DNA from: an uncultured Clostridia bacterium
GTDB taxonomy: Bacteria > Bacillota > Clostridia > Christensenellales > UBA1242
Assembly: GCA_934747385.1 (NCBI GenBank)
Contig: CAKVGK010000002.1
Span: 2,436-66,435 of the forward strand
DNA: 64,000 bases
Direction of reading: 5' to 3'
In this document: piece by piece, positions 5,372 through 61,441 of the stretch
Layout: every line of letters begins with the position of its first letter
How positions within the stretch are numbered: position 1 is the stretch's first letter
Translations under genes and position numbers: made by a program
Notes under the pieces: model-generated
The model's input: only the letters and a program-made list of their open reading frames with translations
Told to the model about the DNA's origin: nothing
The model's database searches: none

Positions 5372-5463
5372 TGTTATTTAATAATAACAAAAAACATAAT
5401 CAAAAGCAATTGAATTTTGTTGCGGATTTGCAACTGTTTGTAGGGTTTGGAATATATAACAAT

Positions 5464-6135: not shown

Positions 6136-6172
6136 AAAATGCAAAAAATTAATAAAAAGTAACAAAAAAATG

Positions 6173-7578: not shown

Positions 7579-7677
7579 AATTATTCCTTTTTCTATTTTA
7601 TTTTTTACGCTTAAAAATTATGTTAAAAAGGCTTTAAATTTAATTATTAAAATAATAAAATTAAAACGATAAAATAT

Positions 7678-7707
7678 TTGACAAATTATGCTAATAATAT
7701 TTATAAT
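7678..7707 (+). promoter_or_regulatory. Sigma-A-type promoter for the giant lipoprotein gene
   Basis: TTGACA (7678-7683), 18-nt spacer, TATAAT (7702-7707). Confidence 0.5.
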
Positions 7708-7781
7708 TAAATTATTAATTAATTTATTTTTTTACTTTAATAATTCGGTGCGTTTAGGTTAAATTAATTTTAGGGGAACAC

Positions 7782-13700: not shown

Positions 13701-16700
13701 GACACAACCACAATAACAGCAATTTTAACCACGGACAAAGAACTTAAAACCAAAGAAGAACTATCTAAGTTAATTAATTACATTAAAATTAATGACACAA
13801 CTTTTGGAAGTGATTCTAGTGAAGTAAAAGGCTGTTTGAGTGTTAAAGAAGTTGGTACGTTTGATGAAGAAAGACACTCTCAAATTGTTAAATTCAATTT
13901 TGTTGTAACTGAAGCAATTCAAAAAATAATGAAAGACAATCAAACAAACACAATGTATATTAACTTTAAGGCATCAGGTTCTCTTGGCACAGGAGCAGAA
14001 AGCAGCATAAAATTCAACATTCTTAAACAACGCATTGATGAAATTGTTGTGCGTAACTATATTTATGAGCGCCTCACAAATGGAGATTTTGATTACACCA
14101 AATATTACGAAAACAACATTCTTCGCCCAATTGGTGAGGGCTTGATTACAATCGACATTGCTCCATTAAACGGCAATTTTGATTATCTTGAAATAAGCGA
14201 CATCACAGGCGCGGAAGAAATTGTGTTCGTTCAAACAGAGGGTGTTCATGGCAAACGAATTTTGGATAATGTTGAAAAGTCAACTGACCAAAAAGGCATA
14301 AGGCTGCAATCTTTAAGTGGTGGCGGCAAAGTTTATGTTGCAACCATGATTGACGCAAACTTCACAAACCGCAAACACATTGTTCAAGTTCGCGCATATG
14401 TTGACGGAATTGAAATTAAATCCACCACATTGCAAATTGACGTCAAAATGCTGCCAGAAGTTAACATTTATTTGGTTAATAAAGACGGCACTGTTAACCG
14501 CAACACGGTTGAAAACAATTACGTTGCGCAAAACACAACTGTTCGCTTTAAAGTTGAAACCAAAAATAGTGATGATATTGAGCCTATTGTAGAGGCAAAA
14601 ATTGGAAGTGCCATTCAATCAATAACAAACGAGGGCAATGGCTATTATTCAATCGCACTCGGTGCAAACGCTGGCAACAAGTTGGAAATTAAGGCAACCA
14701 CGCAACTCACTTTGAACAATGGCAACATTGAAGAAAGTTCAACCACTCAAGAATATGGAATTGAAAATTATGTAATCAACAACATAAGCGTAACCCACAG
14801 CACAACCAATGTGGTTGACGGCAAAAACATAACAAAAATTTACGGCAACTTGGGTGCAGACGTTCCAATTGAATTTTACTTTAAAAATGTGGACTTAACT
14901 TTTGAGGACGAACGATTTGAATATAAGGCAGATACCTATGACGAAACCGAAACAGATAAGGCAAAATTAGGTATTAGAAACTTTCTTAGCACGCTGAATA
15001 GTAAAGAAGTTTTAAACTATCTATCATTTGATTTCTCGCGAGTTGAACTTGATGATGACAAAATACTTGCACAACTAGCAGATAATGATTCAATAAAACT
15101 CAATTTCACAAACAATAAAGGCACAAGCGAGGAGAGAACTGAAACTATTGCAAGTGTTTGGTTTGACGGCACAGCAAAAACAATCAAAGTTAATATGTCC
15201 AGAGATTTTGACATTGATTTGACACTAACTTTGCCATTAAAAACTAAGGACAACAATTTTGTTATAACCAGCAATGAAGACGCAACAATAACACGCAAAT
15301 TTGTTTATCAGTTGGATTTTATTGAAGAAAGTTCATTCTTAGAGCCAATTGCAGTGAGAAGTGAAGAAGATTTCTTGAATATGTCCAGCGGCGGCGATTA
15401 CATTTTGGCAAAAGACTTGAACTTTGACGTATACACTCCAATTGATGTTAAATTAAATAGTTTTGACGGCAATGGTCACAAAATCACAATCAATAGTTTT
15501 GGTTTGTTTGAAGAGGCAAATATCAGCGCAGGTTTGTTCAAACAAGTTTATGAAAATATGGTTGTTATGAACCTGAATGTTGAATATAAAATCATGAGGT
15601 CAACCCCTTACGATTTGTGCAACAACTCAGCAAATGTGGATTATGTTGATGCAAGTTTCGGAGGCATAACTGCCAATAATAGCGGCGTAATCACAAATTG
15701 CAAAACTTTGGGTGAAATATATTTGTGTGCGTCCGTTGTTGAACAAGCAATTGAGGACGACGAAATCAGTTTCAACATTGCTGGCTTGGTTTGCAAAAAC
15801 TTGGGAACTGGTCGCATCACAAACTCAGTAAGTGAACTTCAAATCACTGCAAAAGCAAACATTGCAGGCGTGGTATGTTCAAACAGCGGCAAAATTGCCT
15901 CAACCTATTTCAATGCAAATAATGGTAAGGGCAGAATTTACGCTTACAACAATAACGTTACTGTTCCATATTTAATTCAAGTTGCAGGCTTTGCGCTTAA
16001 CAACGAAACTGACGGCGAAATTTCAATGTGCTATGTTGAGTCTGGCACACACGTGCGCAACGGCTCAAATATCGGCAATATTTCAGCAAAAGACTATTCT
16101 TCTGGCTTTGTTTACACAAACTCAGGCAGCATAGTGGATTGTTATGCAGATATCGAATTGATTGGCGAATCCAGCAACAACGATATTGCAGGCTTTGTTT
16201 ACAATAACACTGGCGAAGTTGAAAATTGTTATTCGTTTGTTAACAATGGCAAAAAGACCAACCTCATCAGCATGTTTGCACCTGAAAAAACCACAGGAAT
16301 CACAAATTGTTACGAAATTAAACAGGACGTTGCCGGTTACAAAAACAATGTTGAGGGTTTAACAACAATATCTTCACTCAACCGCACTCAAAAAGAGAGT
16401 TACCCTTCATTAATGTTTGGCAACAACATTAGTGCAGTGTGGACAAAATCTCCACAAGATTTGCCAAAACTTGTTTCAACACAAGAAAAGGTTGAATTTA
16501 GCGGCGAGGCTTTGAAAGATGAAGATAAGAATAAGGAATATCCAGAATATTATTATGGGCTTAAAACATTAAATCTTGAAGTTAAAGACATCCTTGATGA
16601 TTTAGGCAATATTATAAGGAAAGAATATAAATATAAAACCATTGCAAACAATTTTGGAGATAAACAAAACCCAATTTTAATTTATAATCTTGCAACTTGG

Positions 16701-28225: not shown

Positions 28226-29626
28226 ATGTCACTTATTTCTGATTTAATAAAATATCATGGCAACATACCATTGGAGTCAGCATTTCATGGGTTTATCTAT
28301 TGGTTCACACAAGTTATTGGATTAATTTTCTTTTTAATGTATTTCCACCAGTTTGTGTATTTAATAATTGGAACATTGCACCACACTAAAATTAAGGGCA
28401 GTGATTTTAAAAAGCACACCTATGGCATTGTTATTTCAGCAAGGAATGAAAGCAAAGTTATTGGCAATCTTATCAAAAGTATTCAAGCAAACGACTATCC
28501 TCAAGATTTGTTGAAAATCTTTGTTATTGCAGACAACTGCACAGACAACACCGCGCAAATTTGTCGTGATTTGGGTTGCATTGTGTTTGAGCGTTTTGAC
28601 CAAGAAAAAATTGGCAAGGGTTATGCTTTAAATTGGTTCTTCACTCAACTTCACACAGAAGAACAATATGCAAATTTAGTTCCAGAAGCGTACATAATTG
28701 TGGATGCGGACAATGTGCTTAAACCAAATTTCATCACAGAGATGAACAAGGTTTACGATAAAGGTTATAAAATGGTTACATCTTATCGTAACAGCAAAAA
28801 CTTTGGCAAAAACTGGATTACAGCGGGCTATGGATATTGGTTCTTGCATGAAGCAAGACATTTAAACAACTCACGTATGATGATTAAATCATCTTGTGCA
28901 ATTTCTGGCACAGGGTTTCTTATTGACACAAGTGTGGTCAAGGAATTTGGTAACTGGAATTTCTTCACTCTTACAGAAGATATTCAATGTTCAACAGAAT
29001 ATGCCATCACAGGCAGAAAAGTTGGTTATTGCGGCACAGCAGAACTTTATGATGAACAACCAGAAACATTCAAACAATCTTGGCGTCAACGTGAACGTTG
29101 GGCAAAAGGTTTTTATCAAGTGTTTGGTCGCCGAGGCTGGAGTTTGATAAAACATTCATTCACAAATTTCTCTTGTTGGGACATTTTAACAACATTGTTC
29201 CCAGCATTGGTTATTTCTCTTACAATGTGTATTGTGCTTCCAACATGTTCAATTGTTGGGCTTTGCATGGGCAGCGGGACACTTGCTTGGTTTGCGCTTA
29301 AAGAATTATTGATGACAATTGGTCAAATGTATGGTTTGATGTTTGTTATTGCAAGTTTGGTCTGCATTACAGAATGGAAAAAAATCAAATGTCCATGGTA
29401 TAAAAAAATACTTCATCTGTTTACTTTCCCAATTTTTATGTTTACATATTTGCCAATTTCAGTTGCTGCAATGTTTAAAAAAGTTACATGGAAGCCAATT
29501 GTTCACACAGCAAACATGAGTTTGGACGAAATTAACGCAAAAGCAGATAAGCAAGCAAAGGCTGTTGTTGGCGTTGTTGAAAATTCAAAAGACACAACAA
29601 ATAAAGAAGAAAATAGTGAAGAGTAA
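28226..29626 (+). CDS. Family-2 glycosyltransferase, membrane-integrated processive synthase type
   Basis: N-terminal TM helix, GT-A core (DNCTDNT, DADN) and QSWRQRERWAKG (QxxRW-type motif), followed by four or more C-terminal TM helices. Confidence 0.75.
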   Translation: MSLISDLIKYHGNIPLESAFHGFIYWFTQVIGLIFFLMYFHQFVYLIIGTLHHTKIKGSDFKKHTYGIVISARNESKVIGNLIKSIQANDYPQDLLKIFVIADNCTDNTAQICRDLGCIVFERFDQEKIGKGYALNWFFTQLHTEEQYANLVPEAYIIVDADNVLKPNFITEMNKVYDKGYKMVTSYRNSKNFGKNWITAGYGYWFLHEARHLNNSRMMIKSSCAISGTGFLIDTSVVKEFGNWNFFTLTEDIQCSTEYAITGRKVGYCGTAELYDEQPETFKQSWRQRERWAKGFYQVFGRRGWSLIKHSFTNFSCWDILTTLFPALVISLTMCIVLPTCSIVGLCMGSGTLAWFALKELLMTIGQMYGLMFVIASLVCITEWKKIKCPWYKKILHLFTFPIFMFTYLPISVAAMFKKVTWKPIVHTANMSLDEINAKADKQAKAVVGVVENSKDTTNKEENSEE

Positions 29627-40075: not shown

Positions 40076-40867
40076 ATGGCACGTGTAATTGTTATAACGT
40101 CTGGCAAAGGTGGGGTAGGCAAAACAACTATAACAGCAAACCTTGGCAGACAACTTGCAAAACGCAATATGAGAGTTTGTTTGATTGATATGGATATTGG
40201 TCTAAATAATCTTGACGTGGTTATGAATATGGAAGACCGAATTGTTTACACTTTATTGGACGTTTTAGAAGGTAAATGCCGCCTAAAAGAGGCAATTGTT
40301 CAAGACGATTATTTTCCGCTTCTATATTTGCTTTCAACAGGTGGGTTGAATCAAAACTTGTCCATTTCAATTGCTGACATAAAAATGGTTATAAACGAAC
40401 TTGGCAAGGCATTTGATTTTGTGCTGATTGATTGCCCAGCAGGCATTGACGCAGGCTTTAAGCGTGCAGTCTATTGTGCAGACGAAGCACTGGTTGTGAC
40501 AACTCCACATTTAAGCAGCATTCGTGACGCTGATAAAGTTGTGACCATTCTTTCCAGTTACAACATTTCATCAAAAAGGTTTGTTATTAATCGTGCGCGC
40601 GGTGACCTCATTCAGGACAAGCTCATGTTCGACGTTTACGACGTTGGCAAATCGCTTAAAATCGATTTTGGTGGGGTTATTCCTGATGACGACAGTGTTA
40701 TAACAAGCAGCAGCGAAAATAGTGGTGATCAGCGCATTGCATTAAATAGGTCATTCAGTATTTTGGCAGATAACATTTTAACAGGCGAAAAAAAGTTGTT
40801 TGATTGTACATACAAATATCGCGGATTGTTAGGGAAGATAAAAAAGATATTAAAGCGGAGTTGTTGA
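40076..40867 (+). CDS. minD: Septum site-determining ATPase MinD
   Basis: Deviant Walker A SGKGGVGKTT and a C-terminal amphipathic membrane-targeting helix (GLLGKIKKILK). Confidence 0.9.
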   Translation: MARVIVITSGKGGVGKTTITANLGRQLAKRNMRVCLIDMDIGLNNLDVVMNMEDRIVYTLLDVLEGKCRLKEAIVQDDYFPLLYLLSTGGLNQNLSISIADIKMVINELGKAFDFVLIDCPAGIDAGFKRAVYCADEALVVTTPHLSSIRDADKVVTILSSYNISSKRFVINRARGDLIQDKLMFDVYDVGKSLKIDFGGVIPDDDSVITSSSENSGDQRIALNRSFSILADNILTGEKKLFDCTYKYRGLLGKIKKILKRSC

Positions 40868-41089
40868 AAAATGATTAAACATAGAATGAATAAAATTGAT
40901 AACAATCCAAGATAATTTACATACAAATATCGCGGATTGTTAGGGAAGATAAAAAAGATATTAAAGCGGAGTTGTTGAAAAATGATTAAACATAGAATGA
41001 ATAAAATTGATAACAATCCAAGATAATTTACATACAAATATCGCGGATTGTTAGGGAAGATAAAAAAGATATTAAAGCGGAGTTGTTGA
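40807..41089. repeat. Perfect 111-bp tandem repeat, 2.55 copies, starting inside the minD 3' end
   Basis: Units 40807-40917 and 40918-41028 are identical. A third copy matches from 41029 through 41089 and then diverges. Confidence 0.95.
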
Positions 41090-43692: not shown

Positions 43693-43921
43693 TCTAAAGA
43701 GCTGCGACTCAACGCTAACGCATTGAGAACGCTCAATTTAAAAATACGCGACTCAACGCTGACGCATTGAGAACACTCAATTTAAAAATACGCGACTCAA
43801 CGCTGACGCATTGAGAACACTCAATTTAAAAATACGCGACTCAACGCTAGCGCATTGAGAACACTCAATTTAAAAATACGCGACTCAACGCTAACGCATT
43901 GAGAACGCTCAATTTAAAAAT
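43693..43921. repeat. Five tandem copies of a 44-bp unit
   Basis: GCGACTCAACGCTRRCGCATTGAGAACRCTCAATTTAAAAATAC starts at 43704, 43748, 43792, 43836 and 43880. The last copy overlaps the stop codon of the minus-strand gene 43909..44643. Confidence 0.95.
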
Positions 43922-50514: not shown

Positions 50515-50542
50515 AAAAAGCACTGCATGAAGCAGTGTTTTT
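50515..50542. terminator. Bidirectional terminator between convergent genes
   Basis: CACTGC-ATGAA-GCAGTG flanked by an A-run and a T-run. Confidence 0.65.
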
Positions 50543-50584: not shown

Positions 50585-51499
50585 CTAGTTTATTCTTTCA
50601 CGGACATAATATAAAGGCTTGTGTTTTGATTCAACAAAAGTGCGATAAACATAATTACCAATCAATGATAAACATACGATAATAACATTCGTACATATCA
50701 AAATAGTAAAGATAATTGATAAAGTACCAAGCAAATTGAAGTGTTTTGTGGCGACGCACGCTATTATTGAAATAATCAAACCAAAGAATGATAAAATCCC
50801 TAAAAACAATCCAGATTTAAACAATAAATCAATAGGGAGACTTGACTGGGAAAATATAATATCCTCAGCACTTTTTAGTCTCTTTTTAAAGTTATAACCA
50901 GACTTTCCTTCAAATCTGTTTTCTCGAACAACTTGAACACAACCCTGTTTAAAGCCTAATGAATTAACATAGCACACAAACCCTCTACTATTTTCGCGGT
51001 TTGAAATAACAGAATCAATAACAATTCGGCTATATATTCCAAAATTGCTTATATTGTTATCAATTTTTATTCCCATAATTTTTGAATAGGTGCTATAAAA
51101 CAATTTTGAGGTTAACTTCTTTAATTTTACATTTTTAATTTGAGCCAAGACATAGTCGTAATCATTTTGTTTTATTGTTTGATATAACAGCATAATATCT
51201 TCTGGCTTATCTTGTAAATCACAGTCCATAACCACAACATAATTGCCAGATGACGCATCAAGACCTGCCAAAATTGCTTTTTGTTGACCGAAATTTTTAG
51301 ACAAGTCTAAACCAATGATTTTATTGTTGTTATTACATTGTTTCTTAATTTCTGCCCAAGAATTCTTAGGGCAGTGGTCATTGACTAAAATAATTTCATA
51401 GTCATTTGTCAGTTCTGACAAGGTTTGAGTTAAGCGTTCGCACAAAGGTTGTATTGCTGCTGGACAGCCGTAAACAGGCACAACAACTGATATCTCCAT
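50585..51499 (-). CDS. Polyprenyl-phosphate glycosyltransferase (GT2; DPM1/GtrB/ArnC/CsbB architecture)
   Basis: VVVPVYG, SKNFGQQ, MDCDLQDKPED and RFEGKSGY motifs, followed by two C-terminal TM helices and a (K)PLYYV tail. Confidence 0.8.
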   Translation of the reverse strand: MEISVVVPVYGCPAAIQPLCERLTQTLSELTNDYEIILVNDHCPKNSWAEIKKQCNNNNKIIGLDLSKNFGQQKAILAGLDASSGNYVVVMDCDLQDKPEDIMLLYQTIKQNDYDYVLAQIKNVKLKKLTSKLFYSTYSKIMGIKIDNNISNFGIYSRIVIDSVISNRENSRGFVCYVNSLGFKQGCVQVVRENRFEGKSGYNFKKRLKSAEDIIFSQSSLPIDLLFKSGLFLGILSFFGLIISIIACVATKHFNLLGTLSIIFTILICTNVIIVCLSLIGNYVYRTFVESKHKPLYYVRERIN

Positions 51500-51508
51500 A
51501 ATAATCTC

Positions 51509-51841
51509 CTAAATATAAAATATAATAATTCCCACAATGATAATAAGGTTTCCAAGAATAACATTCCATGAAAGTTTTTCTTTTAGAATAAGCCAACTAA
51601 AAATTAAAATAAAAACATATCCTAGAGTTTCAATAATAGGGCCACTTGTGTATGCAATGCCTCGATATGCCAAAATTGTGAGTAGAGTTGAAACAATCAA
51701 AAGTAAATATCCTCCAATAACCAAAGGATTGAGGTATTCTTGCTTTATTGTTTTGTGGGGTTTGTTTGCACTTATCTTTAAAAGCAATTGAGAAATAGAT
51801 GCTATAAAGACAGATAAAATCATAATAAAATAATACATCAT
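51509..51841 (-). CDS. Small four-helix EamA/SMR-like membrane protein (ArnE-like flippase subunit candidate)
   Basis: 110 aa with four hydrophobic helices. Overlaps the upstream paralog by 4 nt. Confidence 0.6.
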   Translation of the reverse strand: MMYYFIMILSVFIASISQLLLKISANKPHKTIKQEYLNPLVIGGYLLLIVSTLLTILAYRGIAYTSGPIIETLGYVFILIFSWLILKEKLSWNVILGNLIIIVGIIIFYI

Positions 51842-52248
51842 TTTTTAATGTTTACAACAATTATTCCTACAATAACTATTGCTACTCCTATTAATTTAGT
51901 TGCAGAAAAAGATTCATTAAATATTGTTGCTCCCCAAATTAGAGTCCAAATTAGGGCAGTTGCTTTGAAAGCGTAAGAAATTGATAAGTTGAGATGCTTT
52001 ATAATTTGTTGCCAAATAATTGCATAAGCCCCTAAAATTAAAATTTCTAAACCATAAAATAAACAAAATTTAAAAGACAAGAAGGCTTCGCCTGAAGCAA
52101 ATTTTGCACATACCCCAGACAAAGAGGATAAAAATATTGAGGCTATCAACACTAAATATAAAACAACTTTCTTTTTAGTTGATAAAGATGTTACATTTGT
52201 TTCGTTTGTTACAGGTTTATTTGTTTGATTTGAATTGTTTTCTTCCAT
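51838..52248 (-). CDS. Small four-helix EamA/SMR-like membrane protein (ArnF-like flippase subunit candidate)
   Basis: 136 aa with a polar N-tail and four hydrophobic helices. The start overlaps the upstream SDR gene stop by 1 nt. Confidence 0.6.
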   Translation of the reverse strand: MEENNSNQTNKPVTNETNVTSLSTKKKVVLYLVLIASIFLSSLSGVCAKFASGEAFLSFKFCLFYGLEILILGAYAIIWQQIIKHLNLSISYAFKATALIWTLIWGATIFNESFSATKLIGVAIVIVGIIVVNIKK

Positions 52249-53255
52249 TACTTGTTTTTCCTATATTTAAACCAATCGTTGTAAAAATTATTTTCCATTT
52301 CATTTTTAAAGTCAATCATCATATCTTTGTAATTTGTAAATTTTGGAGCAAATCCAAAGTCATTAATAGATTTAGAAATGTCTAAGAAATAACTTGGAGA
52401 ATTATTTGGTTTTTCAGGTCTTAAAACTATTTTTGATTTTTTATCCTTACCAAAGACGTCTATAATTGTTTGAATCTGGTCTTTTAAATATAACTTGTTG
52501 CCATTAGAAATATTGTATACACCATATGCCTTGTCACTTTTTATTGCATCGCAACATGCGTCAACAAGGTCTTTTACATAAATTATATCACGATATAAAT
52601 TTTCATTTCCCCAAAGTTCTATATCTTCACCATTCTGTGCTTTCTCAATAAATGTTTGAATTCCAGACTTATATGCTTTGCCATCAACATAAATAGTGCC
52701 ATGTGGACCAACGCCATATACAGGAGGAAGCCTAAATATAATTGGTTTGAAGTTAAAGGTTGAGGCGTAGTGAAATATATAATCTATTGCTGCAAGTTTG
52801 CTTATAATGTAGGCACTGTGATCACCTGTATATTTTATTTTTCTTTCGGCATTTTCTTTGATGGGCTGACCATTAATTCCGTTGGCAAGGATATCAGAAT
52901 AAGATGAAGTATACAAAAAGTTAGGTATTTTGTTTTTTACACAATATTCTAGGGCATAAATTGTACCTAATACGTTTGTCTTTACATAGTCTTCAGAATC
53001 ATCAAAATTTGAATCATCATATTTAATATTTGCAGGCAGTCTGCCAGCAAACATAATAATTGCTTCTACGTTTGAAGTTGGCAATTTGCTAAAATCTTCT
53101 TTTTTATTAATGTCTAATTGAACCCAAGTCAAATTTTTATGTTCAAAACTTGGTTTCTTTGAAAAATAAGTTCCAACAACTTGTTCGTTTTCGTCAAGAA
53201 GCTTTTTAACCATATAGCTACCAATAAAGCCACTTGCTCCCAAAACTAATATCAT
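52248..53255 (-). CDS. NAD-dependent sugar-nucleotide epimerase/dehydratase/reductase (extended SDR)
   Basis: GASGFIGS Rossmann motif and YIISK (YxxxK). Confidence 0.8.
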   Translation of the reverse strand: MILVLGASGFIGSYMVKKLLDENEQVVGTYFSKKPSFEHKNLTWVQLDINKKEDFSKLPTSNVEAIIMFAGRLPANIKYDDSNFDDSEDYVKTNVLGTIYALEYCVKNKIPNFLYTSSYSDILANGINGQPIKENAERKIKYTGDHSAYIISKLAAIDYIFHYASTFNFKPIIFRLPPVYGVGPHGTIYVDGKAYKSGIQTFIEKAQNGEDIELWGNENLYRDIIYVKDLVDACCDAIKSDKAYGVYNISNGNKLYLKDQIQTIIDVFGKDKKSKIVLRPEKPNNSPSYFLDISKSINDFGFAPKFTNYKDMMIDFKNEMENNFYNDWFKYRKNK

Positions 53256-54403
53256 TTGTTTAAAACCTCCAACAATTTTTTTCTATCATCAAAATGCATG
53301 ATTGCATAACCAAGTCTAGATGAACTATCCACAACTTCGTTTTCATTTATTGTTTCTGGCAAATCCATTTGAATTATATTTCTTTTACGTATTTTTTTAA
53401 CAATATCCAGATCGGTTTGATTGAATATGTATTTTATTCCAACGTTTTTATAAACTGGCTTAAAATCTGCTTGCAAATTCAAAGGATTGCCAACCGCGCA
53501 ATCAATACAATATTTTACAAAATCATGGCCGGTGGAATATTTAACTAGGTCACTTCCAATAAAATCGCCACCCATTCTACTTCCAATTTCAATAATTTTA
53601 ATCGTTCTGCTTGCAGTGTCCCACTTAAATTCGCTATGAGAGCAACCCTGTTTAATATTCAAGGCGTTTAATGCTTCATAGATTGACTTTTCAATAATTT
53701 TTAATTCTGCTTTGTTAAAACCAGATGGTTCGATATGTCCGGTTTCAATAAAGTTTGGTGCACCAGTTGTGAATTTTTTTGTCACAGCAAGCATTGTATG
53801 CTTTCCATTTTGTGAAATACACTCGGCTGAAAATTCATCTCCTTCCAAAAATTCTTCAATAATAGCCTTTTTTTCAAAGGATTGTTCAAAAGCATTTTCT
53901 AATGCGGTGTCAAGTTCTTCTGTGCTGAATATTTTTGTAATCGCTCTACTTCCAGACCTGTCGGTTGGTTTTACAATAAGTGGAAATTTAAAATTTGAAA
54001 TATTCACTTCCTGAATGTTTGAAACAACTTCAAATTTAGGGCATTCAATACCATGTCTAGAAAAACATGATCTCATTAAATATTTGTTTGTGCTGTTTGT
54101 TGTACACTCTACGCTGTTGCCTGGCAAATTTAATTCTTTTGCCAACTTATTAACAGTGATATTTGCTAAGTCACTTGCAATAGTACAAATACCGCATGGG
54201 TGGATTTGTTTTAATATTTCCAAAATTTTTGAAATATTTTTAATGTCTATATCATAAAATTTATCAATAAAATCAAAACCTGTGGCCCCAGTTTTCCATG
54301 CAAACACATGTGTTTCATAACCTAATATCTTTGCTTTTTTAATTAATGGTAATTGCAAATAACTTGCGCCAATAATCGCTAATTTTTTTATTTTTTGACT
54401 CAT
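53252..54403 (-). CDS. ATP-grasp domain ligase
   Basis: FPLIVKPTDRSGSR, IIEEFLEGDEFS and SRMGGD patterns typical of the ATP-grasp fold. Confidence 0.75.
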   Translation of the reverse strand: MSQKIKKLAIIGASYLQLPLIKKAKILGYETHVFAWKTGATGFDFIDKFYDIDIKNISKILEILKQIHPCGICTIASDLANITVNKLAKELNLPGNSVECTTNSTNKYLMRSCFSRHGIECPKFEVVSNIQEVNISNFKFPLIVKPTDRSGSRAITKIFSTEELDTALENAFEQSFEKKAIIEEFLEGDEFSAECISQNGKHTMLAVTKKFTTGAPNFIETGHIEPSGFNKAELKIIEKSIYEALNALNIKQGCSHSEFKWDTASRTIKIIEIGSRMGGDFIGSDLVKYSTGHDFVKYCIDCAVGNPLNLQADFKPVYKNVGIKYIFNQTDLDIVKKIRKRNIIQMDLPETINENEVVDSSSRLGYAIMHFDDRKKLLEVLNK

Positions 54404-54410
54404 GTCCTCA

Positions 54411-54440
54411 ATATTAGCATTTTTTTTGATATTTTGTCAA
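54411..54440 (-). promoter_or_regulatory. Promoter for the minus-strand sugar operon
   Basis: Minus strand: TTGACA, 18-nt spacer, TAATAT, then 7 nt (TGAGGAC) to the ATG at 54403. Confidence 0.45.
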
Positions 54441-54492
54441 ATGATTATATTTATTGTTGAAAAATAAAATAAAAAGTTCTTTGTATAATGCT

Positions 54493-54521
54493 TTGACTTA
54501 TTTTTCTTGTGGTTTTATAAT
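54493..54521 (+). promoter_or_regulatory. Promoter for the plus-strand sugar operon
   Basis: TTGACT (54493-54498), 17-nt spacer, TATAAT (54516-54521). Confidence 0.55.
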
Positions 54522-54546
54522 AGTTAAACAATTAAAAGGGAAAATT

Positions 54547-55686
54547 ATGATACCATTTAACAAACCTAGTTTAACAGAGCTAGAAAAAAAATATATGTTA
54601 CAGGCCATTGAATCTGGAAAAATATGTGGAGATGGAGGGTTTACTAAAAAGGTTAATGAATTTTTTAAAAAAAAATTTAATGTTGATAATTTTATGTTAA
54701 CAACCTCTTGCAGTTCTGCTTTGGACATGTCTGCAATTTTGTTGGATTTGCAAAAAGGAGACGAAGTAATTGTTCCGTCATATACATTCGTTTCAACTGC
54801 TAATTCGATAGTTTTACGTGGAGCAACTCCTGTTTTTTGTGATGTTTGCAAAGAAACTATGAATATCGACCCTAATAAAATTGAAGAATTGATTACAACA
54901 AGAACAAAAGCAATATACGTCGTGCACTATGCTGGTCATGTTTGTGATATGGACAAAATTATGAGTATCGCAAGATCTCATGATTTATATGTCGTTGAGG
55001 ATGCAGCGCAAGCAGTTGGTTCTCTCTATAATGGTAAAGTTGCTGGCACAATAGGAGATATGGGTTGTTATTCTTTTCATGAAACAAAAAATTATGTAAT
55101 GGGTGAAGGTGGTGCTTTAATAATTAACAACCCAAAATTTGTAGAAAGGGCTGAAATTATTCGTGAAAAAGGAACTGACAGAAGTAAGTTTTTGCGTGGA
55201 CAAGTTGACAAATACACCTGGCAGGATTGTGGCTCCTCATTCTTGCCATCAGACATTTTGTCTGCAATATTGTACGCTCAATTAGAAAGATTTGATGAAA
55301 TTTTTAATAAGCGTATGTCAGCATGGAATTATTATTATCAAAATCTTAAAATTCTTGAAGAACAAGGATTGATAGAATTACAGGGCAGCAAAGTTGAAAA
55401 CTACCAACATAACGCACACATGTTTTATATTTTGACTAAAGATATCCAAGAACGTGATAAATTAACTGCATATTTAAAGCAATGCGGAATCAGTGCAGTT
55501 TTCCATTATGTTCCGCTGCATAATTCACCTTTTGCAATCAAACTTTTAAACAACAAAATTCCAAAACTGCCAGTAACCGTAGAGTATTCACAGAGGTTAC
55601 TGCGTTTGCCAATGTATGCTGATATCAGTTTGAATGAATTGGAATTTATTGTTAATTCAATCAAAACTTTTTATGAGGTGAAATAA
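54547..55686 (+). CDS. wecE: dTDP-4-keto-6-deoxyhexose 4-aminotransferase (DegT/DnrJ/EryC1 family, WecE-like)
   Basis: MIPFNKPSLTELEKKYMLQAIESGKICGDGGFTKKVNEFF closely parallels the E. coli WecE N-terminus. SFHETKN is the PLP-lysine motif. I prefer the ATG at 54547. Confidence 0.75.
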   Translation: MIPFNKPSLTELEKKYMLQAIESGKICGDGGFTKKVNEFFKKKFNVDNFMLTTSCSSALDMSAILLDLQKGDEVIVPSYTFVSTANSIVLRGATPVFCDVCKETMNIDPNKIEELITTRTKAIYVVHYAGHVCDMDKIMSIARSHDLYVVEDAAQAVGSLYNGKVAGTIGDMGCYSFHETKNYVMGEGGALIINNPKFVERAEIIREKGTDRSKFLRGQVDKYTWQDCGSSFLPSDILSAILYAQLERFDEIFNKRMSAWNYYYQNLKILEEQGLIELQGSKVENYQHNAHMFYILTKDIQERDKLTAYLKQCGISAVFHYVPLHNSPFAIKLLNNKIPKLPVTVEYSQRLLRLPMYADISLNELEFIVNSIKTFYEVK

Positions 55687-56558
55687 TGAAAGGTATAATT
55701 TTAGCAGGTGGCAAAGGAACAAGGTTGTGGCCAATAACCAAATCTATAAGCAAGCAAATTATTCCAATTTATGATAAACCTATGATTTTTTATCCGTTGT
55801 CGGTATTAATGCTTGCAAACATTAAGGAATATTTAATAATTTCAACACCTAGAGATATCCCAATGTTTAAAGAATTGCTTGGCGATGGAAGTCAATTAGG
55901 AATAAATATTCAGTATAAAATTCAAGAGAATGCAAATGGAATTGCTGAAGCGTTCTTAATAGGTAAGGATTTTATAGGGAAGGATAATGTGTGCTTAATT
56001 CTGGGCGACAATTTCTTTTATGGTCATGGATTTTCAGATTTCTTAAAAGAATGCAAAACAATAGATCAAGTAGGTGGAGCATACGTCCTAGCATATAAAG
56101 TAAAAGACCCAACAAAATATGGGGTTGTTGAATTTGATGAAACAAAAAAAGTTGTTTCCATTGAAGAAAAGCCTTTGATTCCAAAATCTGAGTATGCAAT
56201 ACCTGGATTGTATTTTTTTGATAATTCAGTTATTGAAAAAACAAAGAATTGTAAGAAATCTGCAAGAGGTGAATATGAGATTGTTTCAATCTTAAATCAA
56301 TACCTAAATGAAAACAAATTAAAGTGCGCGGTTGTTGGTAGAGGTTTAGCATGGCTTGACACTGGGGAACCTTCTGGACTTAACGACGCTAGCAATTTTG
56401 TGAGAACAATACAAGATTCTCAGTCTGCTTATATTGCTTGTCTTGAAGAAGTTGCTTATAATCAAGGATTTATAAACTATCAACAGTTAATTAATCTAGG
56501 CAAAACTTACAAATCAGAATATGGAAAATATATTCTATCTTTAAAGGAGAAAAATTAA
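55686..56558 (+). CDS. rfbA: Glucose-1-phosphate thymidylyltransferase
   Basis: MKGIILAGGKGTRLWPIT...KQIIPIYDKPMIFYPLS is canonical RmlA. Confidence 0.9.
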   Translation: MKGIILAGGKGTRLWPITKSISKQIIPIYDKPMIFYPLSVLMLANIKEYLIISTPRDIPMFKELLGDGSQLGINIQYKIQENANGIAEAFLIGKDFIGKDNVCLILGDNFFYGHGFSDFLKECKTIDQVGGAYVLAYKVKDPTKYGVVEFDETKKVVSIEEKPLIPKSEYAIPGLYFFDNSVIEKTKNCKKSARGEYEIVSILNQYLNENKLKCAVVGRGLAWLDTGEPSGLNDASNFVRTIQDSQSAYIACLEEVAYNQGFINYQQLINLGKTYKSEYGKYILSLKEKN

Positions 56559-57601
56559 TGCAAACTTATTTAATTACCGGTGGTGCAGGTTTCATTGGTT
56601 CAAACTTTATAAAATACATGCTAAAAACATATAAAGAAATTAAAATTATCAATCTGGACAAATTAACATATGCTGGAAATATTAACAATTTAAGAACTTG
56701 TGAAACCGATGAAAGATATAGCTTCGTAAGAGGAGATATTTGCGATAAACAAGTGGTAGAAAACATATTCAAACAAAATAATATTGATTATGTTGTAAAT
56801 TTTGCAGCGGAAAGTCATGTTGACAATAGTATAAAATCTGCATTCCCTTTTTTTGAAACAAATGTTATGGGGTGCTTAAATTTGATTGAACAAGCAAGAA
56901 AATTTTGGAGTGATGGCGAAGGCTATTTGCCAAATAAAAAATTTCTTCAAATTTCAACAGATGAAGTATATGGGAGCTTGGAATTAGATTCCGTAGAAAA
57001 GTTTAATGAGCAAACTAACATTAATCCGCATTCTCCTTATTCGGCGTCAAAAGCAAGCGCAGATATGCTTGTTAAATCTTTCTATGATACGCACAAAATG
57101 CCAATTAACATAACAAGATGTTCAAATAATTATGGACCATTTCAATTTCCAGAAAAATTAATACCTTTAATATTTACAAAATGTCTAAAAAAACAATCTT
57201 TACCAGTATATGGTGATGGGTTAAATGTTAGAGATTGGTTATTTGTTGAAGACCACTGTAGAGCTATTGATTTAGTTTTGCATAAAGGCAAAATAGGCGA
57301 AATTTATAATATTGGTGGCGGTGTTGAGCAACCAAATATAGCCATAGTTAAAAAGATTATTAATTTTTTGCATAAATACGACGCTAAAATAACAGAAGAA
57401 TTGATAACTTATGTTACAGACAGAAAGGGACATGATAGAAGATATGCTATTGATTGTTCGAAATTGACGAAAGAATTAGGATATAGTCCAATGTATAATT
57501 TTAACCAAGCAATGGACGAAACTCTGACATGGTATTTAAACAACAAAAATTGGTTGGAAAATATTGTAAGTGGTGAATATGTCAACGACAACAACGCTTA
57601 G
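56558..57601 (+). CDS. rfbB: dTDP-glucose 4,6-dehydratase
   Basis: TGGAGFIGSNF, STDEVYG and YSASKA motifs. Confidence 0.9.
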   Translation: MQTYLITGGAGFIGSNFIKYMLKTYKEIKIINLDKLTYAGNINNLRTCETDERYSFVRGDICDKQVVENIFKQNNIDYVVNFAAESHVDNSIKSAFPFFETNVMGCLNLIEQARKFWSDGEGYLPNKKFLQISTDEVYGSLELDSVEKFNEQTNINPHSPYSASKASADMLVKSFYDTHKMPINITRCSNNYGPFQFPEKLIPLIFTKCLKKQSLPVYGDGLNVRDWLFVEDHCRAIDLVLHKGKIGEIYNIGGGVEQPNIAIVKKIINFLHKYDAKITEELITYVTDRKGHDRRYAIDCSKLTKELGYSPMYNFNQAMDETLTWYLNNKNWLENIVSGEYVNDNNA

Positions 57602-59273
57602 TTCTTCAGAGAATAAAAACCTTAGCAACCCAAATCAGGCAAGAAAGAAGATTTGGATTTCTTTTGCAATTGTACTGGTTTACTTTGCTTTGTTGTTGCT
57701 CATTTTTAATTTCATGTTCAGCATAAATGATGACAGGCAAATTATGGAGATAGTGTGTGGAAAATTTTCCAATGCAACACCTTATGCTATCTTTATTTCA
57801 ACTTTGTTTTCTTATCCACTATATTTTCTTTATAAACTATTCCCAAATTTCCCAGTGTATGGCTTTGCTTATGTTGTAGAAATGTTTTTAGTTTTATGGT
57901 TTATTACATTTTTTGTTTTAAGCAAAGTTCAACAGAATATTAAAATAAAAGCACTGTTTATTACAATAACATATTTAACATTATTACCATTTTTGGTTTT
58001 AACTCAATTTACATTTGTTACGGCAATATTATGTTTTCCTCTTGTTATAATAAGTGTTTATTTTAATAAATTCAGTAAAAAAGAAAAAATAGTTTATTCG
58101 GTTTTATTTGCCTTGTTCGCGTTTTTATCCGTTGGAATTAGATATCAAGTCTTCTTAATGTCGGTACCGTTTGTTGGTTTAGGAGTTGTACTTGGGCTCT
58201 CAAAAGATAAAAAATCATTTATATCAACACTGTTAATAGTTTTAATGACTGTTGTTTTTTTATTTAATCTTGGTTTGAACAAAATAATTTTGTCAAATGA
58301 TGAGAATTATAAAAATTTTAACGAATACAACATTGTAAGGTCTGATTTATATGATTATTATGGATTCCCTGATTATGATAGCAACAGAGAATTTTATGAA
58401 AGCTTATCAATTGATAAATCAGCTTATGAATTATTAACACATTATGTTTTTGATATCCCTGAAGCAAGTTTGGAAAACATGAGGGTTATTAGGGACTATC
58501 AGTTAGAAAATTCAACAAAATCAAATAGATTTATTATCAAAACAGTATATGAGGGTTTTAATGGTTCAAAAGTATTGTCCAGCTTAATAATTATTCTCAT
58601 AGTCACAAATTGTTTCTGTGGCATAAAAAATAAAGATAAGAGAATTTTATTCTCTATTTTACTATTGGTTATTGGAACTTTAATTATGTCTGCATTTATT
58701 GCTTATAAAATGAAATTCCCAGTTCGTATTGCAGAATGCTTACTGTTATTTAATTTTTACTTTTTAATTGCACAATTAACAAGTTTCGAAAATTCGCCGA
58801 TAAAAACAAAAACAAGCAAAATTCTGTTTTGCATTATGGGAATATTAATGTTTAGCATGTTTGTTCATTCTATTGTCAAAACATATAATTATAGTAGAGG
58901 AATAAAATCTTATTGTAATTTTTATCAGGGGCTTGAAAATGAATTAATAAATCGACCTGAAAATATATATTTTGTCGAAAAAGACATAACAATTCCTTTG
59001 AATGCTTATTTGTTAAAGTCAACAAAAGTAGTAACAAACCAGTATGTGTCGGATTGGAATGTGTTTTCAACCTTTTACAATTCTTTAATGAAAGAATTAA
59101 AATATTCTTCATTTTATGATTTGTTAAATAATGCTGATAATTTTTACTTGGTAACAAATGACTTAAATGTTATTAATAGATATAACGAATATGTAGGTTC
59201 AAGATTTAATAAAAAATTTGTTAATACAGAGGAGATATTGAATTGTAAAATTTGGTTTTTGTGCCCAGTTTAA
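57570..59273 (+). CDS. Large polytopic membrane protein, candidate GT-C-type glycosyltransferase
   Basis: 567 aa with at least 10 predicted TM helices in the N-terminal two thirds. Acidic NDD follows TM1. A soluble tail of about 130 aa follows. The start (57570 GTG or 57579 ATG) overlaps the rfbB end. Confidence 0.5.
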   Translation: MVNMSTTTTLSSSENKNLSNPNQARKKIWISFAIVLVYFALLLLIFNFMFSINDDRQIMEIVCGKFSNATPYAIFISTLFSYPLYFLYKLFPNFPVYGFAYVVEMFLVLWFITFFVLSKVQQNIKIKALFITITYLTLLPFLVLTQFTFVTAILCFPLVIISVYFNKFSKKEKIVYSVLFALFAFLSVGIRYQVFLMSVPFVGLGVVLGLSKDKKSFISTLLIVLMTVVFLFNLGLNKIILSNDENYKNFNEYNIVRSDLYDYYGFPDYDSNREFYESLSIDKSAYELLTHYVFDIPEASLENMRVIRDYQLENSTKSNRFIIKTVYEGFNGSKVLSSLIIILIVTNCFCGIKNKDKRILFSILLLVIGTLIMSAFIAYKMKFPVRIAECLLLFNFYFLIAQLTSFENSPIKTKTSKILFCIMGILMFSMFVHSIVKTYNYSRGIKSYCNFYQGLENELINRPENIYFVEKDITIPLNAYLLKSTKVVTNQYVSDWNVFSTFYNSLMKELKYSSFYDLLNNADNFYLVTNDLNVINRYNEYVGSRFNKKFVNTEEILNCKIWFLCPV

Positions 59274-59560: not shown

Positions 59561-59651
59561 TGGCGGAGAGTGAGGGATTTGAACCCTCGCGCGCCTTTCG
59601 ACGCCTACATCCTTAGCAGGGACGCCTCTTCGACCTCTTGAGTAACTCTCC
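59561..59651 (-). tRNA. tRNA-Ser (anticodon GCT), CCA encoded
   Basis: Minus strand: GGAGAGT...CGTCC-CTGCTAA-GGATG, long variable arm, GAGGG-TTCAAAT-CCCTC, ACTCTCC-G-CCA. Confidence 0.9.
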
Positions 59652-59902: not shown

Positions 59903-61441
59903 ATGAAAAAAATATTAAGAAGCGCAATGGCTTTAAGTTTGGCTGGTGCAGCGTGCTTAAGTTTTGTTGGTTGTGGAAATGACGGCTCAAAAATTGAGGC
60001 AGCAAACAGAAAAGCGTTCGGCAAAGTGTATGCCGCAATTTCAAATTACAGTGCAAATTTGGCAGCGTTGGGAAAAAACTCAACTGAAAGCAAAAATTTT
60101 GAATTCAAAATTGGCTTTGATTTTGATATGAAGACGTTAGATATGTCAACAGACGAATTAACTTCCACTCAGTTAAAATCAATTATGTCAATGAATTTTA
60201 ATGCGGCTTTTGGTGCAAAAACTGGCGCAGAAAACCAAATGTATGCTTACATTAACGCCAAGAATTTAGACAATCAATTGGCAAATTTAATGCACGCATA
60301 TTTCACAACAAAGCAAGACGATGACGTGTTTGTTCGTTGTTACATGAACACTCAGCCAGAGGATTGGGAAACAACATTCACAAGCTATTACACAGAGACC
60401 ACAAGTTATGAATTGAACACTTCAGCAAATTTTGGCGAAGCGCAAATTTATAAAAAAGTTGAAGGAGAGGAAGACCAATATCAACCGATTTTTGTTCAAC
60501 CAGAAGATTGGGACACAAACTATCAAACATATTACGTTTTAAAGCCACAATATGTTCAAAACACAAATCAAACTTTCGACGCTGCAACAGAATATTACAA
60601 ATTAAGTGACATGGTTTACGCTTACTTGAACACAAATGTTTCAGAGTTTGTTAGCTATGAATTGCTTGCCACTGAACCAGCAGATTGGAATTTAAATTAC
60701 AAAAAATATTATAAATTAGGATACAACTATCAGAGTAACACAAATCCAGATTTTGAAGCAGGTATATACTACACATTTAGTACAACAGATGATGATTATC
60801 ATTTGTTGGAAGAAAAGCCAGCAGATTGGGAAACAAATTATGAATCATACTATGTTCAAGTTCCAGCATATGTTTCTAACACAAACACGACATTTGAAGC
60901 AAATAACACTTATGCATTAAAAACTTCTTTGCCAGAAGCCATTGCGGATGTGTTGATTGCAAATATTGAAGATGGCAAATATTCAATCAGTCTTCCAATT
61001 GAAACAGTTAAAGACATGCTTCCAACAACAGGCGACGAAGATGCTACAACAGACATTGTTGACACTCAACAAATCAGTTCAATTATCTCTTCAATTAAAA
61101 ACATTCAAAACTATGACCAATTTAAGGCATTGATTGCTGAAATGGACGCCTCAATTTCTTCTTCAACAGACGCAAACGGCAGTGCACTTATCATCAGCCA
61201 ATCAATAACAGAAGGCACAGGCCTTGCGTCAACCACAACTTCAAATGAACTTAAAATTTATGTTGGCAACAATGGCAGCATGACAATCAGTTTCAAATCA
61301 ACTGTTTCCACTGCAGGCATTCAAGTGAGCTCTATGAGTTTGAATTTGTCAATCTCATTGTCAACATTTGATGAATCACAAGTTCCAACAGAAGTTGAAC
61401 TTGAAGATTATGAAGTAATCACCCTTGAAGATATTTTCTAA
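59903..61441 (+). CDS. Lipoprotein with internal P(E/A)DW(E/D)TNY..YY repeats
   Basis: Signal peptide with lipobox (FVGC). GGGAGG RBS. Four repeats of about 45 aa. Confidence 0.75.
   Translation: MKKILRSAMALSLAGAACLSFVGCGNDGSKIEAANRKAFGKVYAAISNYSANLAALGKNSTESKNFEFKIGFDFDMKTLDMSTDELTSTQLKSIMSMNFNAAFGAKTGAENQMYAYINAKNLDNQLANLMHAYFTTKQDDDVFVRCYMNTQPEDWETTFTSYYTETTSYELNTSANFGEAQIYKKVEGEEDQYQPIFVQPEDWDTNYQTYYVLKPQYVQNTNQTFDAATEYYKLSDMVYAYLNTNVSEFVSYELLATEPADWNLNYKKYYKLGYNYQSNTNPDFEAGIYYTFSTTDDDYHLLEEKPADWETNYESYYVQVPAYVSNTNTTFEANNTYALKTSLPEAIADVLIANIEDGKYSISLPIETVKDMLPTTGDEDATTDIVDTQQISSIISSIKNIQNYDQFKALIAEMDASISSSTDANGSALIISQSITEGTGLASTTTSNELKIYVGNNGSMTISFKSTVSTAGIQVSSMSLNLSISLSTFDESQVPTEVELEDYEVITLEDIF
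60353..60908 (+). repeat. Four in-frame repeats of about 135 nt inside the lipoprotein gene
   Basis: PEDWETTFTSYY, PEDWDTNYQTYY, PADWNLNYKKYY and PADWETNYESYY, each followed by Y..NTN..F(D/E)A. Confidence 0.8.

Follow-up and report, generated by a model that had tools for sequence, protein, structure and literature searches.

A nine-gene locus of an uncultured Clostridia bacterium as a candidate undecaprenyl phosphate-dependent glycosylation system with an amino-dideoxyhexose donor

Nine genes in two divergent operons, lying between positions 50585 and 59273 of a 64,000-nucleotide stretch of DNA from an uncultured Clostridia bacterium (the whole stretch is called the window below), raise the question of which sugar they make, how it crosses the membrane and to what it is attached. 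A first-pass annotation had read them as an Arn-like pathway that delivers a free, cationic amino sugar to the cell envelope. In our best reading, to which we give a probability of about 0.6, the nine genes make up a complete transmembrane glycosylation system of several components, comparable in kind to GtrABC, Arn or CsbB-GtcA-YfhO, which depends on undecaprenyl phosphate (Und-P), acts on the extracytoplasmic side and is supplied with a sugar derived from dTDP-Fuc4N (Fuc4N being 4-amino-4,6-dideoxygalactose) that is probably N-acylated by an ATP-grasp ligase. The gene content, the family and fold assignments, the opposite topology bias of two small membrane proteins and the conservation of the gene set in other genomes were observed directly. 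All nine open reading frames (ORFs) of the first-pass annotation were confirmed in the window, with their coordinates, strands and divergent arrangement, and its domain assignments were borne out by Pfam and NCBIfam profile searches. The genes are:

50585-51499, minus strand: family 2 glycosyltransferase (GT2), 304 amino acids
51509-51841, minus strand: 110-amino-acid membrane protein
51838-52248, minus strand: 136-amino-acid membrane protein, 4-bp overlap with the gene for the 110-amino-acid protein
52248-53255, minus strand: extended short-chain dehydrogenase/reductase (SDR), 335 amino acids
53252-54403, minus strand: ATP-grasp ligase, 383 amino acids
54547-55686, plus strand: WecE-type transaminase of the DegT family, ATG start at 54547 (MIPFN...)
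55686-56558, plus strand: RmlA, glucose-1-phosphate thymidylyltransferase
56558-57601, plus strand: RmlB, dTDP-glucose 4,6-dehydratase
57570/57579-59273, plus strand: polytopic membrane protein of 564/567 amino acids, overlapping the 3' end of rmlB

A conserved cassette with a changeable membrane partner

Three other lineages carry the same nine genes, with protein identities of 32-69%. Two metagenomic loci (L001 and L002) have the same divergent layout, with a YfhO gene adjoining and with Clostridia markers such as SCIFF; an uncultured Clostridia metagenome-assembled genome (L007) also carries the nine genes in this layout, and in two other loci (L004 and L005) they form one co-directional operon with another gene order. 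The grouping of the nine genes in the window is far beyond chance. The most divergent of the nine proteins is the polytopic one (32-39% identity), which is assigned below to the GT-C fold of glycosyltransferases, and this is as expected of an acceptor-specific component.

One genome per GTDB species was scanned with an alignment of the ATP-grasp protein, and at least 373 species representatives were found to encode a relative of it. The best 80 loci were examined; they belong mostly to gut and rumen Clostridia (Blautia, Roseburia, Acutalibacteraceae and others) with some from Erysipelotrichaceae. The prediction can be tested directly, as cultured strains occur among the carriers: Longicatena caecimuris DSM 29481 (locus L050, with two members of the window's GT-C family), Blautia caecimuris DSM 29492, Roseburia amylophila and Hominiventricola aquisgranensis. 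One record, L063, is labelled ‘Thermoguttaceae bacterium LCP21S3_D1’ and is identical in gene order and gene lengths to the Roseburia amylophila locus L056, so it is probably mislabelled or contaminated and not a planctomycete occurrence.

Partners were counted up to 7 kb from the ATP-grasp gene in the 52 loci that had at least 5 kb of sequence on both sides. A GT2 gene was present in 51 of these, the WecE-like transaminase in 47, the 110-amino-acid protein in 46 and the 136-amino-acid protein in 45, and a polytopic protein (at least 400 amino acids and at least seven transmembrane (TM) helices) in 42; the SDR, RmlB and RmlA were seen less often (14, 13 and 10 loci respectively). The ATP-grasp ligase is a core part of the cassette; the transaminase has no partner more constant than this, and the two genes are usually adjacent. 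The polytopic partner varies between DUF2142/PMT_2-like proteins (33 loci), YfhO (eight), the family of the window protein (six), DUF6056 (two) and a fifth type, a family of 552-588 amino acids with no Pfam match (five), and these types are unrelated sequence clusters. Because the polytopic partner is swapped in this way, we take the conserved unit to be a donor module (transaminase, ATP-grasp ligase, small pair and GT2) combined with an interchangeable GT-C, and such swapping is the pattern expected of acceptor-specific GT-Cs served by one donor module.

Other members of the window's GT-C family are likewise neighbours of a GtrB-like GT2, as at L090 (described below) and at L094. At L094 two tandem members adjoin the GT2, and within positions 2-11655 of that locus they are followed by a 79-amino-acid protein with no Pfam match, a short-chain reductase, a split transketolase, an AMP-binding enzyme, LuxE and LuxC; the same GT-C family would seem to serve another kind of lipid-linked sugar decoration here, perhaps one modified by an acyl or aldehyde group.

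The donor sugar and its probable acylation

RmlA (TIGR01207, 410.3 bits against a cut-off of 360.65; 52% identity to E. coli RfbA) and RmlB (TIGR01181, 469.2 bits, cut-off 365.1) both passed the curated NCBIfam thresholds, and the transaminase passed two of them (PRK11706, 557.5 bits, cut-off 375; TIGR02379, 514.2 bits, cut-off 434.85). As all three enzymes score above equivalog cut-offs, the branch would lead to a dTDP-4-amino-4,6-dideoxyhexose, which is what the first-pass annotation had proposed. Full-length identity of the transaminase to E. coli WecE is 52% (377 residues, E = 3e-140) and its identity to ArnB 30%, and WecE orthology, as judged by sequence, is the strongest assignment in the cluster. 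By this orthology Fuc4N, the galacto isomer, is the most likely product; the product names of the two curated models that match are in conflict, one giving galactose and the other glucose. RmlA and RmlB had been described as standing without RmlC and RmlD, and this holds within the window, where E. coli queries (tblastn, E ≤ 0.01) gave no match for RfbC, RfbD, Wzx, WzxE, WecD, ArnA, ArnD or ArnT; RmlC and RmlD may be encoded elsewhere in the genome.

The ATP-grasp protein matches Pfam ATP-grasp_4 (1e-20), and its nearest solved relatives are the L-amino acid ligase BL00235 (3vot, 5.1e-25), 4dim and BacD (5e-10), so that it combines an ATP-grasp fold with characterised L-amino acid ligases as closest kin; its NCBIfam scores are all far below equivalog cut-offs. 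Gene context suggests that it probably N-acylates the 4-amino sugar. We propose this because it is the near-obligate partner of the transaminase and kin to L-amino acid ligases, because neither an acetyltransferase nor a formyltransferase (nor a deacylase) was found in the window by Pfam and tblastn, and because WecD and ArnA set the precedent for such a step. With the ligase in the place of WecD or ArnA, and as constantly paired with the transaminase as described above, the delivered sugar is more probably N-acylated than free.

A different outcome is that the free amine, Fuc4N or its gluco isomer Qui4N, is delivered and is cationic like the 4-amino-4-deoxy-L-arabinose (L-Ara4N) of the Arn pathway, the ATP-grasp ligase and SDR serving a separate molecule or the acceptor. 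The RmlA/RmlB/WecE chain does end at a free amine, the parts of a three-component system are all present and the SDR is dispensable in most related loci. We nevertheless consider this outcome unlikely, as the ATP-grasp gene accompanies the transaminase in 47 of 52 loci, the N-acyltransferase place of the enterobacterial common antigen (ECA) and Arn pathways would otherwise be empty, and the cluster has no deacylase. ArnB-type transaminations are, moreover, pulled forward by N-acylation, as in the ArnA/ArnB pair. The free-amine endpoint of the first-pass annotation was therefore not supported, since it gives no role to so constant a partner, and its cationic decoration does not stand as written: on the N-acylated reading that we prefer, net charge would be set by the acyl group, an alpha-aminoacyl group keeping a positive charge and an acidic or neutral acyl group not doing so.

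Several loci (L021, L043, L050, L055, L070, L075-L077 and L084) carry a second ATP-grasp gene in the cassette, and L050 a third. These extra genes, found in Blautia-type and Longicatena loci, encode proteins of 23-30% identity. The presence of two or three ATP-grasp genes per locus hints at stepwise extension and longer, peptide-like substituents. We therefore put forward, tentatively and at odds somewhat below even, that gut Clostridia and their relatives widely use an envelope modification not yet described, in which the ligase is a ‘sugar-aminoacyl ligase’ adding one amino acid (a short peptide in the multi-gene loci) to dTDP-Fuc4N, the product being loaded on Und-P by a GtrB-type enzyme that accepts dTDP-sugars, flipped by an antiparallel ArnE/ArnF-like heterodimer and transferred by interchangeable GT-Cs to teichoic acids, wall polysaccharides or surface proteins. 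If true, this would be a third route for tuning the charge of the Gram-positive surface, besides D-alanylation and lysyl-phosphatidylglycerol, and it could influence how commensals resist antimicrobial peptides, adsorb phages and are recognized by the host.

The SDR matches Pfam Epimerase (2.2e-40) and has the NAD-binding GxxGxxG and the YxxxK motifs; its nearest solved relatives are nucleotide-sugar epimerases, at a distance (4zrm, 2.3e-18). Read from its sequence, it lacks the dehydratase motif present in RmlB and is not a 4,6-dehydratase, and its RmlD scores are negligible.

From the lipid carrier to the outer face of the membrane

The GT2 protein (Pfam Glycos_transf_2, 1.5e-23) has the layout that the first-pass annotation had likened to DPM1, GtrB and ArnC, and the likeness extends from end to end: residues 2-300 align with 27-327 of GtrB sll0501 (5eke, 4e-39) and residues 2-302 with 9-313 of the ArnC structure 9hwj (4.8e-26), and a BLASTP alignment with E. 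coli ArnC (24% identity over residues 2-304, E = 3e-31) spans the TM hairpin. A GT-A domain with DxD motif, an interface region and two C-terminal TM helices were all recognized, as in GtrB, ArnC and DPMS. The cluster encodes no second GT-A enzyme and so offers the dTDP-sugar no alternative local exit.

Both small proteins have the four-helix EamA/small multidrug resistance (SMR) fold, and the 110-amino-acid protein matches Pfam EamA (1.1e-07). Family profiles of the two small proteins, built from homologues in the related loci, were compared by hhalign. The 110-amino-acid family matched E. coli ArnE with a probability of 92% over 105 columns, its full length, the 136-amino-acid family matched ArnE with 95%, and the two families matched each other with 97%, as paralogues. 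ArnE was the top match of both and the sole full-length match of the 110-amino-acid family, with which it also has an S-Q-L-x-x-K motif in TM1 in common; the best NCBIfam matches of the 136-amino-acid protein were ArnE (37.4 bits, curated cut-off 92) and ArnF (27.7 bits, cut-off 99). In the 110-amino-acid family loops 1 and 3 are positive in lysine and arginine in 59 of 59 members, which places them inside and predicts an N-out orientation, and in the 136-amino-acid family it is the termini and loop 2 that are positive (33 of 34 members), predicting N-in. From these opposite biases an antiparallel heterodimer is predicted.

The same evidence bears on whether the pair is an ordinary SMR drug or polyamine exporter of the EbrAB or MdtIJ type, with flipping left to a GtrA- or Wzx-type protein encoded elsewhere. 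The hhalign probabilities for MdtI (92%), MdtJ (85-90%) and EmrE (74-88%) come near those for ArnE, weak NCBIfam matches to EbrA, EbrB and MdtI were obtained, and EbrAB and MdtIJ are likewise arranged as antiparallel heterodimers. The exporters nevertheless scored slightly below ArnE and mostly over partial lengths. A membrane-embedded glutamate in TM1 (Glu14 of EmrE) is essential in proton-coupled SMR exporters; its equivalent is alanine in the 110-amino-acid and serine in the 136-amino-acid protein, and TM1 is free of acidic residues in the family consensus. The pair also keeps company with the transaminase, ATP-grasp ligase and GT2 in about 45 of the 52 loci, across several Clostridia families, and in the distant relative L090 (order: transaminase, GT-C, GT2, ATP-grasp, SDR) a Wzx-like gene stands in its place. 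An exporter function is thus disfavoured by the sequence evidence and we hold it to be improbable. Like ArnE and ArnF, the two are adjacent paralogues without Glu14 encoded alongside a putative Und-P-sugar synthase and a GT-C, and a flippase remains our preferred reading of them.

The 567-amino-acid protein gave no Pfam or NCBIfam match. A word-indexed search found eight relatives, a 66-sequence profile used in such a search returned only four proteins and added nothing, and the protein alone as query found no relative in the GTDB species representatives. An exhaustive profile search returned 6,323 cluster representatives at E ≤ 1e-3, and 1,704 at E ≤ 1e-30, mostly full-length, and the protein therefore belongs to a large unannotated family. 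PF19528 (DUF6056, or GT_STM0557_N, the Salmonella GtrC family) misses the window protein itself and matches three of seven close and 10 of 66 wider homologues (best E 2.7e-8); the homologue P0006 bears it in its precomputed annotation. Other homologues match GtrII, PMT_2 or TMEM260-like families, all of which are, like PF19528, in the GT-C clan, and one of the 66 has a weak match to EpsG, which is Wzy-like.

An AlphaFold2 model from an alignment of seven sequences (pLDDT 67.8; ArnT and AftA as top structural matches, with weak scores) was superseded by one from the 66-sequence alignment, with a pLDDT of 92.8 and a pTM of 0.93. In this model there are about 11 TM helices, TM7 is followed by a long loop on the extracytoplasmic side, and the C-terminus forms an alpha/beta domain that is also extracytoplasmic. 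The six best Foldseek matches of the model in the PDB are all GT-C enzymes (ALG12, PglB, ArnT apo, STT3, ArnT with Und-P, and EmbB), with E = 2.8e-4 and TM-scores of 0.44/0.50 for ALG12 and E = 1.9e-3 and 0.43/0.45 for ArnT apo, and no match outside GT-C exceeds a probability of 0.41. An N50-D51-D52 motif directly follows TM1, with D51 invariant and D52 at least 90% conserved in the 66 sequences, and R188, R254, D259, R383 and W493 are invariant or nearly so. Given an RKK motif at the N-terminus, the positive-inside rule places the N-D-D loop outside, and GT-C enzymes have their catalytic acid in the first external loop. With a superimposable fold and an acidic motif in this loop, the protein as modelled is a GT-C by fold and not a member of the ArnT family. 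ArnT (GT83) membership was rejected, as hhalign with the 66-sequence profile gave a probability of 0.2% against E. coli ArnT and the profile matched no PDB sequence at E ≤ 10.

The fold is also what decides against the proposal that the polytopic protein is a Wzy polymerase, an O-antigen or teichoic-acid ligase or a transporter, and that the cluster feeds a polysaccharide assembled in the cytoplasm on undecaprenyl diphosphate (Und-PP). Neither Wzy nor WaaL is among the 136 Foldseek matches, the top six of which are GT-C, and there is no credible transporter match among them, so these identities were rejected on fold. The single weak EpsG match would favour them, as would the Wzx-like Polysacc_synt gene and the LicD gene adjoining the cassette at L090 and a MurJ/Wzx-like ORF at the far edge of the window (1-1140). 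Against them, the cluster holds no initiating phosphoglycosyltransferase, further glycosyltransferases, Wzx or Wzy (Pfam and tblastn), and its only GT-A enzyme has the GtrB/ArnC architecture that goes with the monophosphate, Und-P. A Pfam census of the surroundings points the same way: 117 non-core neighbours in 26 related loci fell into 196 families, none recurring more than four times, the commonest being choline-binding-type wall repeats, RmlC, HATPase_c and YkuD, and Wzx/Wzy families were not among the recurrent ones. We regard such an assembly route as very improbable, and an external GT-C remains the preferred reading of the polytopic protein.

The first-pass annotation had itself named three outcomes that would speak against it, and its pathway logic came through all three. 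The fold of the polytopic protein proved, by AlphaFold2 and Foldseek, to be GT-C and not Wzy, ligase or transporter; the small proteins came out closest to ArnE, not to drug exporters; and no sign that the cluster is part of a Wzx/Wzy capsule locus or an S-layer glycan locus was seen in the window, where the flanks are housekeeping genes, or among the 117 neighbours, the 26 loci being heterogeneous in their surroundings.

Proposed pathway, known relatives and setting of the locus

Put together, the assignments suggest a pathway of seven steps. RmlA and RmlB, whose families are assigned, would make dTDP-4-keto-6-deoxy-D-glucose (step 1), and the WecE orthologue would aminate C4 to give dTDP-Fuc4N, the stereochemistry being that expected from the orthology (step 2). 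The ATP-grasp ligase may then activate a carboxylate, most simply that of an amino acid, as an acyl phosphate and amidate the 4-amine, which would fix the otherwise unfavourable transamination product (step 3), and the SDR may act as an optional tailoring epimerase or reductase (step 4). The GT2, assigned by family, would load the sugar, presumably from this dTDP donor, onto Und-P at the cytoplasmic face (step 5); an antiparallel heterodimer of the 136-amino-acid (N-in) and 110-amino-acid (N-out) proteins could flip the Und-P-sugar as ArnE/ArnF do (step 6); and the GT-C, assigned by fold, would transfer the sugar outside the membrane onto an acceptor (step 7), for which lipoteichoic or wall teichoic acid, wall polysaccharide and Ser/Thr-rich surface proteins are candidates by analogy.

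A number of points weigh against this pathway. All the chemical steps, the order of acylation and lipid loading, the acyl group and the acceptor are inferred, and what the ATP-grasp ligase acts on is guessed from its gene neighbours, so that its target could be an unrelated molecule or the lipid-linked sugar. To our knowledge a dTDP-sugar donor has never been shown for a GtrB/ArnC-type enzyme. The GT2 falls short of the NCBIfam equivalog cut-off for ArnC (119.7 against 529 bits) and of that for PgfS, its best match (154.6 against 500 bits). The 136-amino-acid protein misses the ArnE and ArnF cut-offs as given above, its family matches MdtI (92%) nearly as well as ArnE (95%), and ArnE and ArnF are not among the NCBIfam matches of the 110-amino-acid protein. 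The GT-C call depends on fold (TM-scores of 0.43-0.50) and on weak clan-level Pfam matches in homologues, and the lack of a sequence match to ArnT or to any PDB entry counts against it also.

The parallel with Arn drawn in the first-pass annotation holds for pathway logic and fails for orthology. Both systems, of which Arn puts L-Ara4N on lipid A, set out from a 4-keto nucleotide sugar that receives its amino group from a DegT-family enzyme, and the amine is then N-acylated (as proposed for the cassette). Both also have a GT2 that ends in two TM helices, two small paralogues of four helices each and an external GT-C; the GT2 aligns with ArnC at full length, both small proteins match ArnE best, and ArnT ranks high among the structural matches of the polytopic protein. 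The cassette differs from Arn in using dTDP and a 6-deoxyhexose instead of UDP and a pentose, in having a transaminase orthologous to WecE (52%, against 30% to ArnB), in having an ATP-grasp ligase where Arn has a formyltransferase, and in lacking an ArnD-like deacylase; the cut-offs for ArnC, ArnE and ArnF are missed and the GT-C has no sequence relation to ArnT. As the source organism has no lipid A, the acceptor must differ as well. The GtrA/GtrB/GtrC systems of O-antigen glucosylation (Shigella and Salmonella phages, and STM0557-0559) are alike in that the GT2 of the cassette is closest to GtrB (5eke, 4e-39), homologues of the polytopic protein match PF19528 and the GT-C partner is variable and acceptor-specific; unlike Gtr, which uses UDP-glucose from central metabolism, the cassette makes its own amino-dideoxyhexose, its flippase candidates are an EamA/SMR-type heterodimer and not GtrA, and the window protein misses PF19528. 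The dTDP-Fuc4NAc branch of ECA (RffH, RffG, WecE, WecD) has the same first three enzymes, whereas the acetyltransferase WecD, the cytoplasmic glycosyltransferase WecF acting on an Und-PP-linked repeat, Wzx and Wzy belong to ECA and have no counterpart in the cassette. L-amino acid ligases (BL00235, BacD/YwfE, DdaF and PylC) are the nearest solved or curated relatives of the 383-amino-acid protein and work through an acyl-phosphate intermediate followed by an amide with an amine; the amine proposed here belongs to an amino sugar and not to an amino acid.

Among Gram-positive systems, CsbB/GtcA/YfhO, GtlA/GtlB, CsdAB-CflA and GacI/J/K/L each combine a GT-A acting on Und-P with a flippase and an external GT-C; those reviewed use the common UDP-derived donors Glc, Gal, GlcNAc and GalNAc and flippases of the GtrA or Wzx type only, and the characterised acceptors are lipoteichoic acid, wall teichoic acid and wall polysaccharides (PMC8035078). 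The streptococcal Pgf system (PgfS/PgfE/PgfM1) O-glycosylates Ser/Thr-rich regions of surface proteins, and its operon includes an SDR epimerase (PMC12041528). The cassette resembles the former in that the same donor genes are paired with YfhO-family GT-Cs in related loci, and the latter in that PgfS is the best NCBIfam match of the GT2 and an SDR gene is present in both; in none of the listed systems is the sugar a 4-amino-4,6-dideoxyhexose, and none employs an ATP-grasp ligase or ArnE/ArnF-like pair. The open-access literature yielded no description linking an ATP-grasp ligase, a WecE-type transaminase and a GtrB-type enzyme, which is not proof of novelty, no member of the cassette's ATP-grasp subfamily and no functional study of DUF6056. 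The mechanism class is thus familiar, and the donor chemistry, a Gram-positive ArnE/ArnF-like flippase and the GT-C family are without description in that literature. If the reading is correct, the known mechanism would extend to a dTDP-derived 4-amino-4,6-dideoxyhexose, N-acylation of a sugar would be a new activity for the ATP-grasp superfamily, an ArnE/ArnF-like heterodimeric flippase would occur outside Gram-negative bacteria, one donor module would be combined with at least five GT-C families, and a functional context would be gained for an unannotated membrane-protein family of more than 6,000 clusters. It would also have a bearing on the surface charge, phage receptors and immune visibility of abundant commensals.

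The two operons diverge from a common promoter region, and transcription signals were identified there and beyond the end of the minus operon, in each case as matches to consensus only:

54404-54546: divergent promoter region common to both operons, 143 bp
50516-50542: hairpin resembling a bidirectional terminator, which separates the 3' end of the minus operon from the MTHFS gene

The mechanically called transaminase ORF begins at TTG 54454, and E. coli WecE aligns with it from ATG 54547 onwards, which we therefore take as the real start; the shared intergenic region had thus been delimited correctly. The polytopic protein has its start at ATG 57579 in the database entry P0001. Sigma-70-like hexamers were found on the plus strand (TTGACT-17-TATAAT, 54493-54521, 11 of 12 matches) and on the minus strand (TTGACA-18-TAATAT with a TG, 54440-54411, 10 of 12 matches). 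The hairpin lies just downstream of the GT2 stop at 50585, with an 11-pair stem and T run read on the plus strand and a 6-pair stem and T run on the minus strand. Upstream of the cluster are dapA, dapB, an amino-acid kinase, NDK and 5-formyltetrahydrofolate cyclo-ligase, and downstream a tRNA-Ser gene and a 512-amino-acid lipoprotein. The cluster abuts this tRNA-Ser(GCT) gene (59561-59651, minus strand) and has a GC content of 0.28-0.31, slightly under a value of about 0.34 and below that of most of the window (0.33-0.41), which is compatible with horizontal acquisition as a mobile island; no integrase or flanking repeats were seen around the cluster. The spore-former label of the first-pass annotation found no confirmation in the window; a large signal recognition particle RNA, PFOR, MreB, and MinD followed by an M50 peptidase, together with the Clostridia affiliation of the related loci, fit a low-GC anaerobic Firmicute.

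Several further ORFs of the window may concern the cell surface. An LtaS-like membrane protein of the sulfatase family (25324-27549, plus strand; weak match to the LtaS model) and a processive-type, EpsU/PgaC-like GT2 (28226-29626, plus strand) lie 23-25 kb upstream of the cluster and may hint at the envelope polymers of the organism. A 3,601-amino-acid ORF (7782-18587, plus strand) with a lipoprotein signal (…LFSAC), rich in Asn, Ser and Thr and with no Pfam domain, could be a candidate acceptor for surface glycosylation. The 512-amino-acid lipoprotein (59903-61441, plus strand) is rich in Thr and Ser, carries a repeated P(E/A)DW(E/D/N)(T/L)N(Y/F)xxYY motif and has no Pfam match.

Two repeat arrays were also noted. 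A 44-bp unit with an internal inverted repeat occurs in five head-to-tail copies (43704-43921, 96% matches), the array ending at the 3' end of a 244-amino-acid minus-strand ORF; it was rejected as a CRISPR, having no spacers. A 111-bp unit is present in 2.5 tandem copies at 100% (40807-41089), in an array that runs from the 3' end of minD into the beginning of the gene after it and is either a very recent duplication or an assembly artefact. Finally, a 902-amino-acid ORF with no Pfam match (21385-24093, plus strand) has an N-terminal membrane segment, a long coiled-coil/acidic region and, at its C-terminus, about 12 AT-hook-like repeats (K/R-x-GRPRK/GRPKK). The DNA of this ORF has an extreme AT skew (0.41) and a raised GC content. 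So many AT-hooks in a protein anchored to the membrane would be unusual for bacteria.

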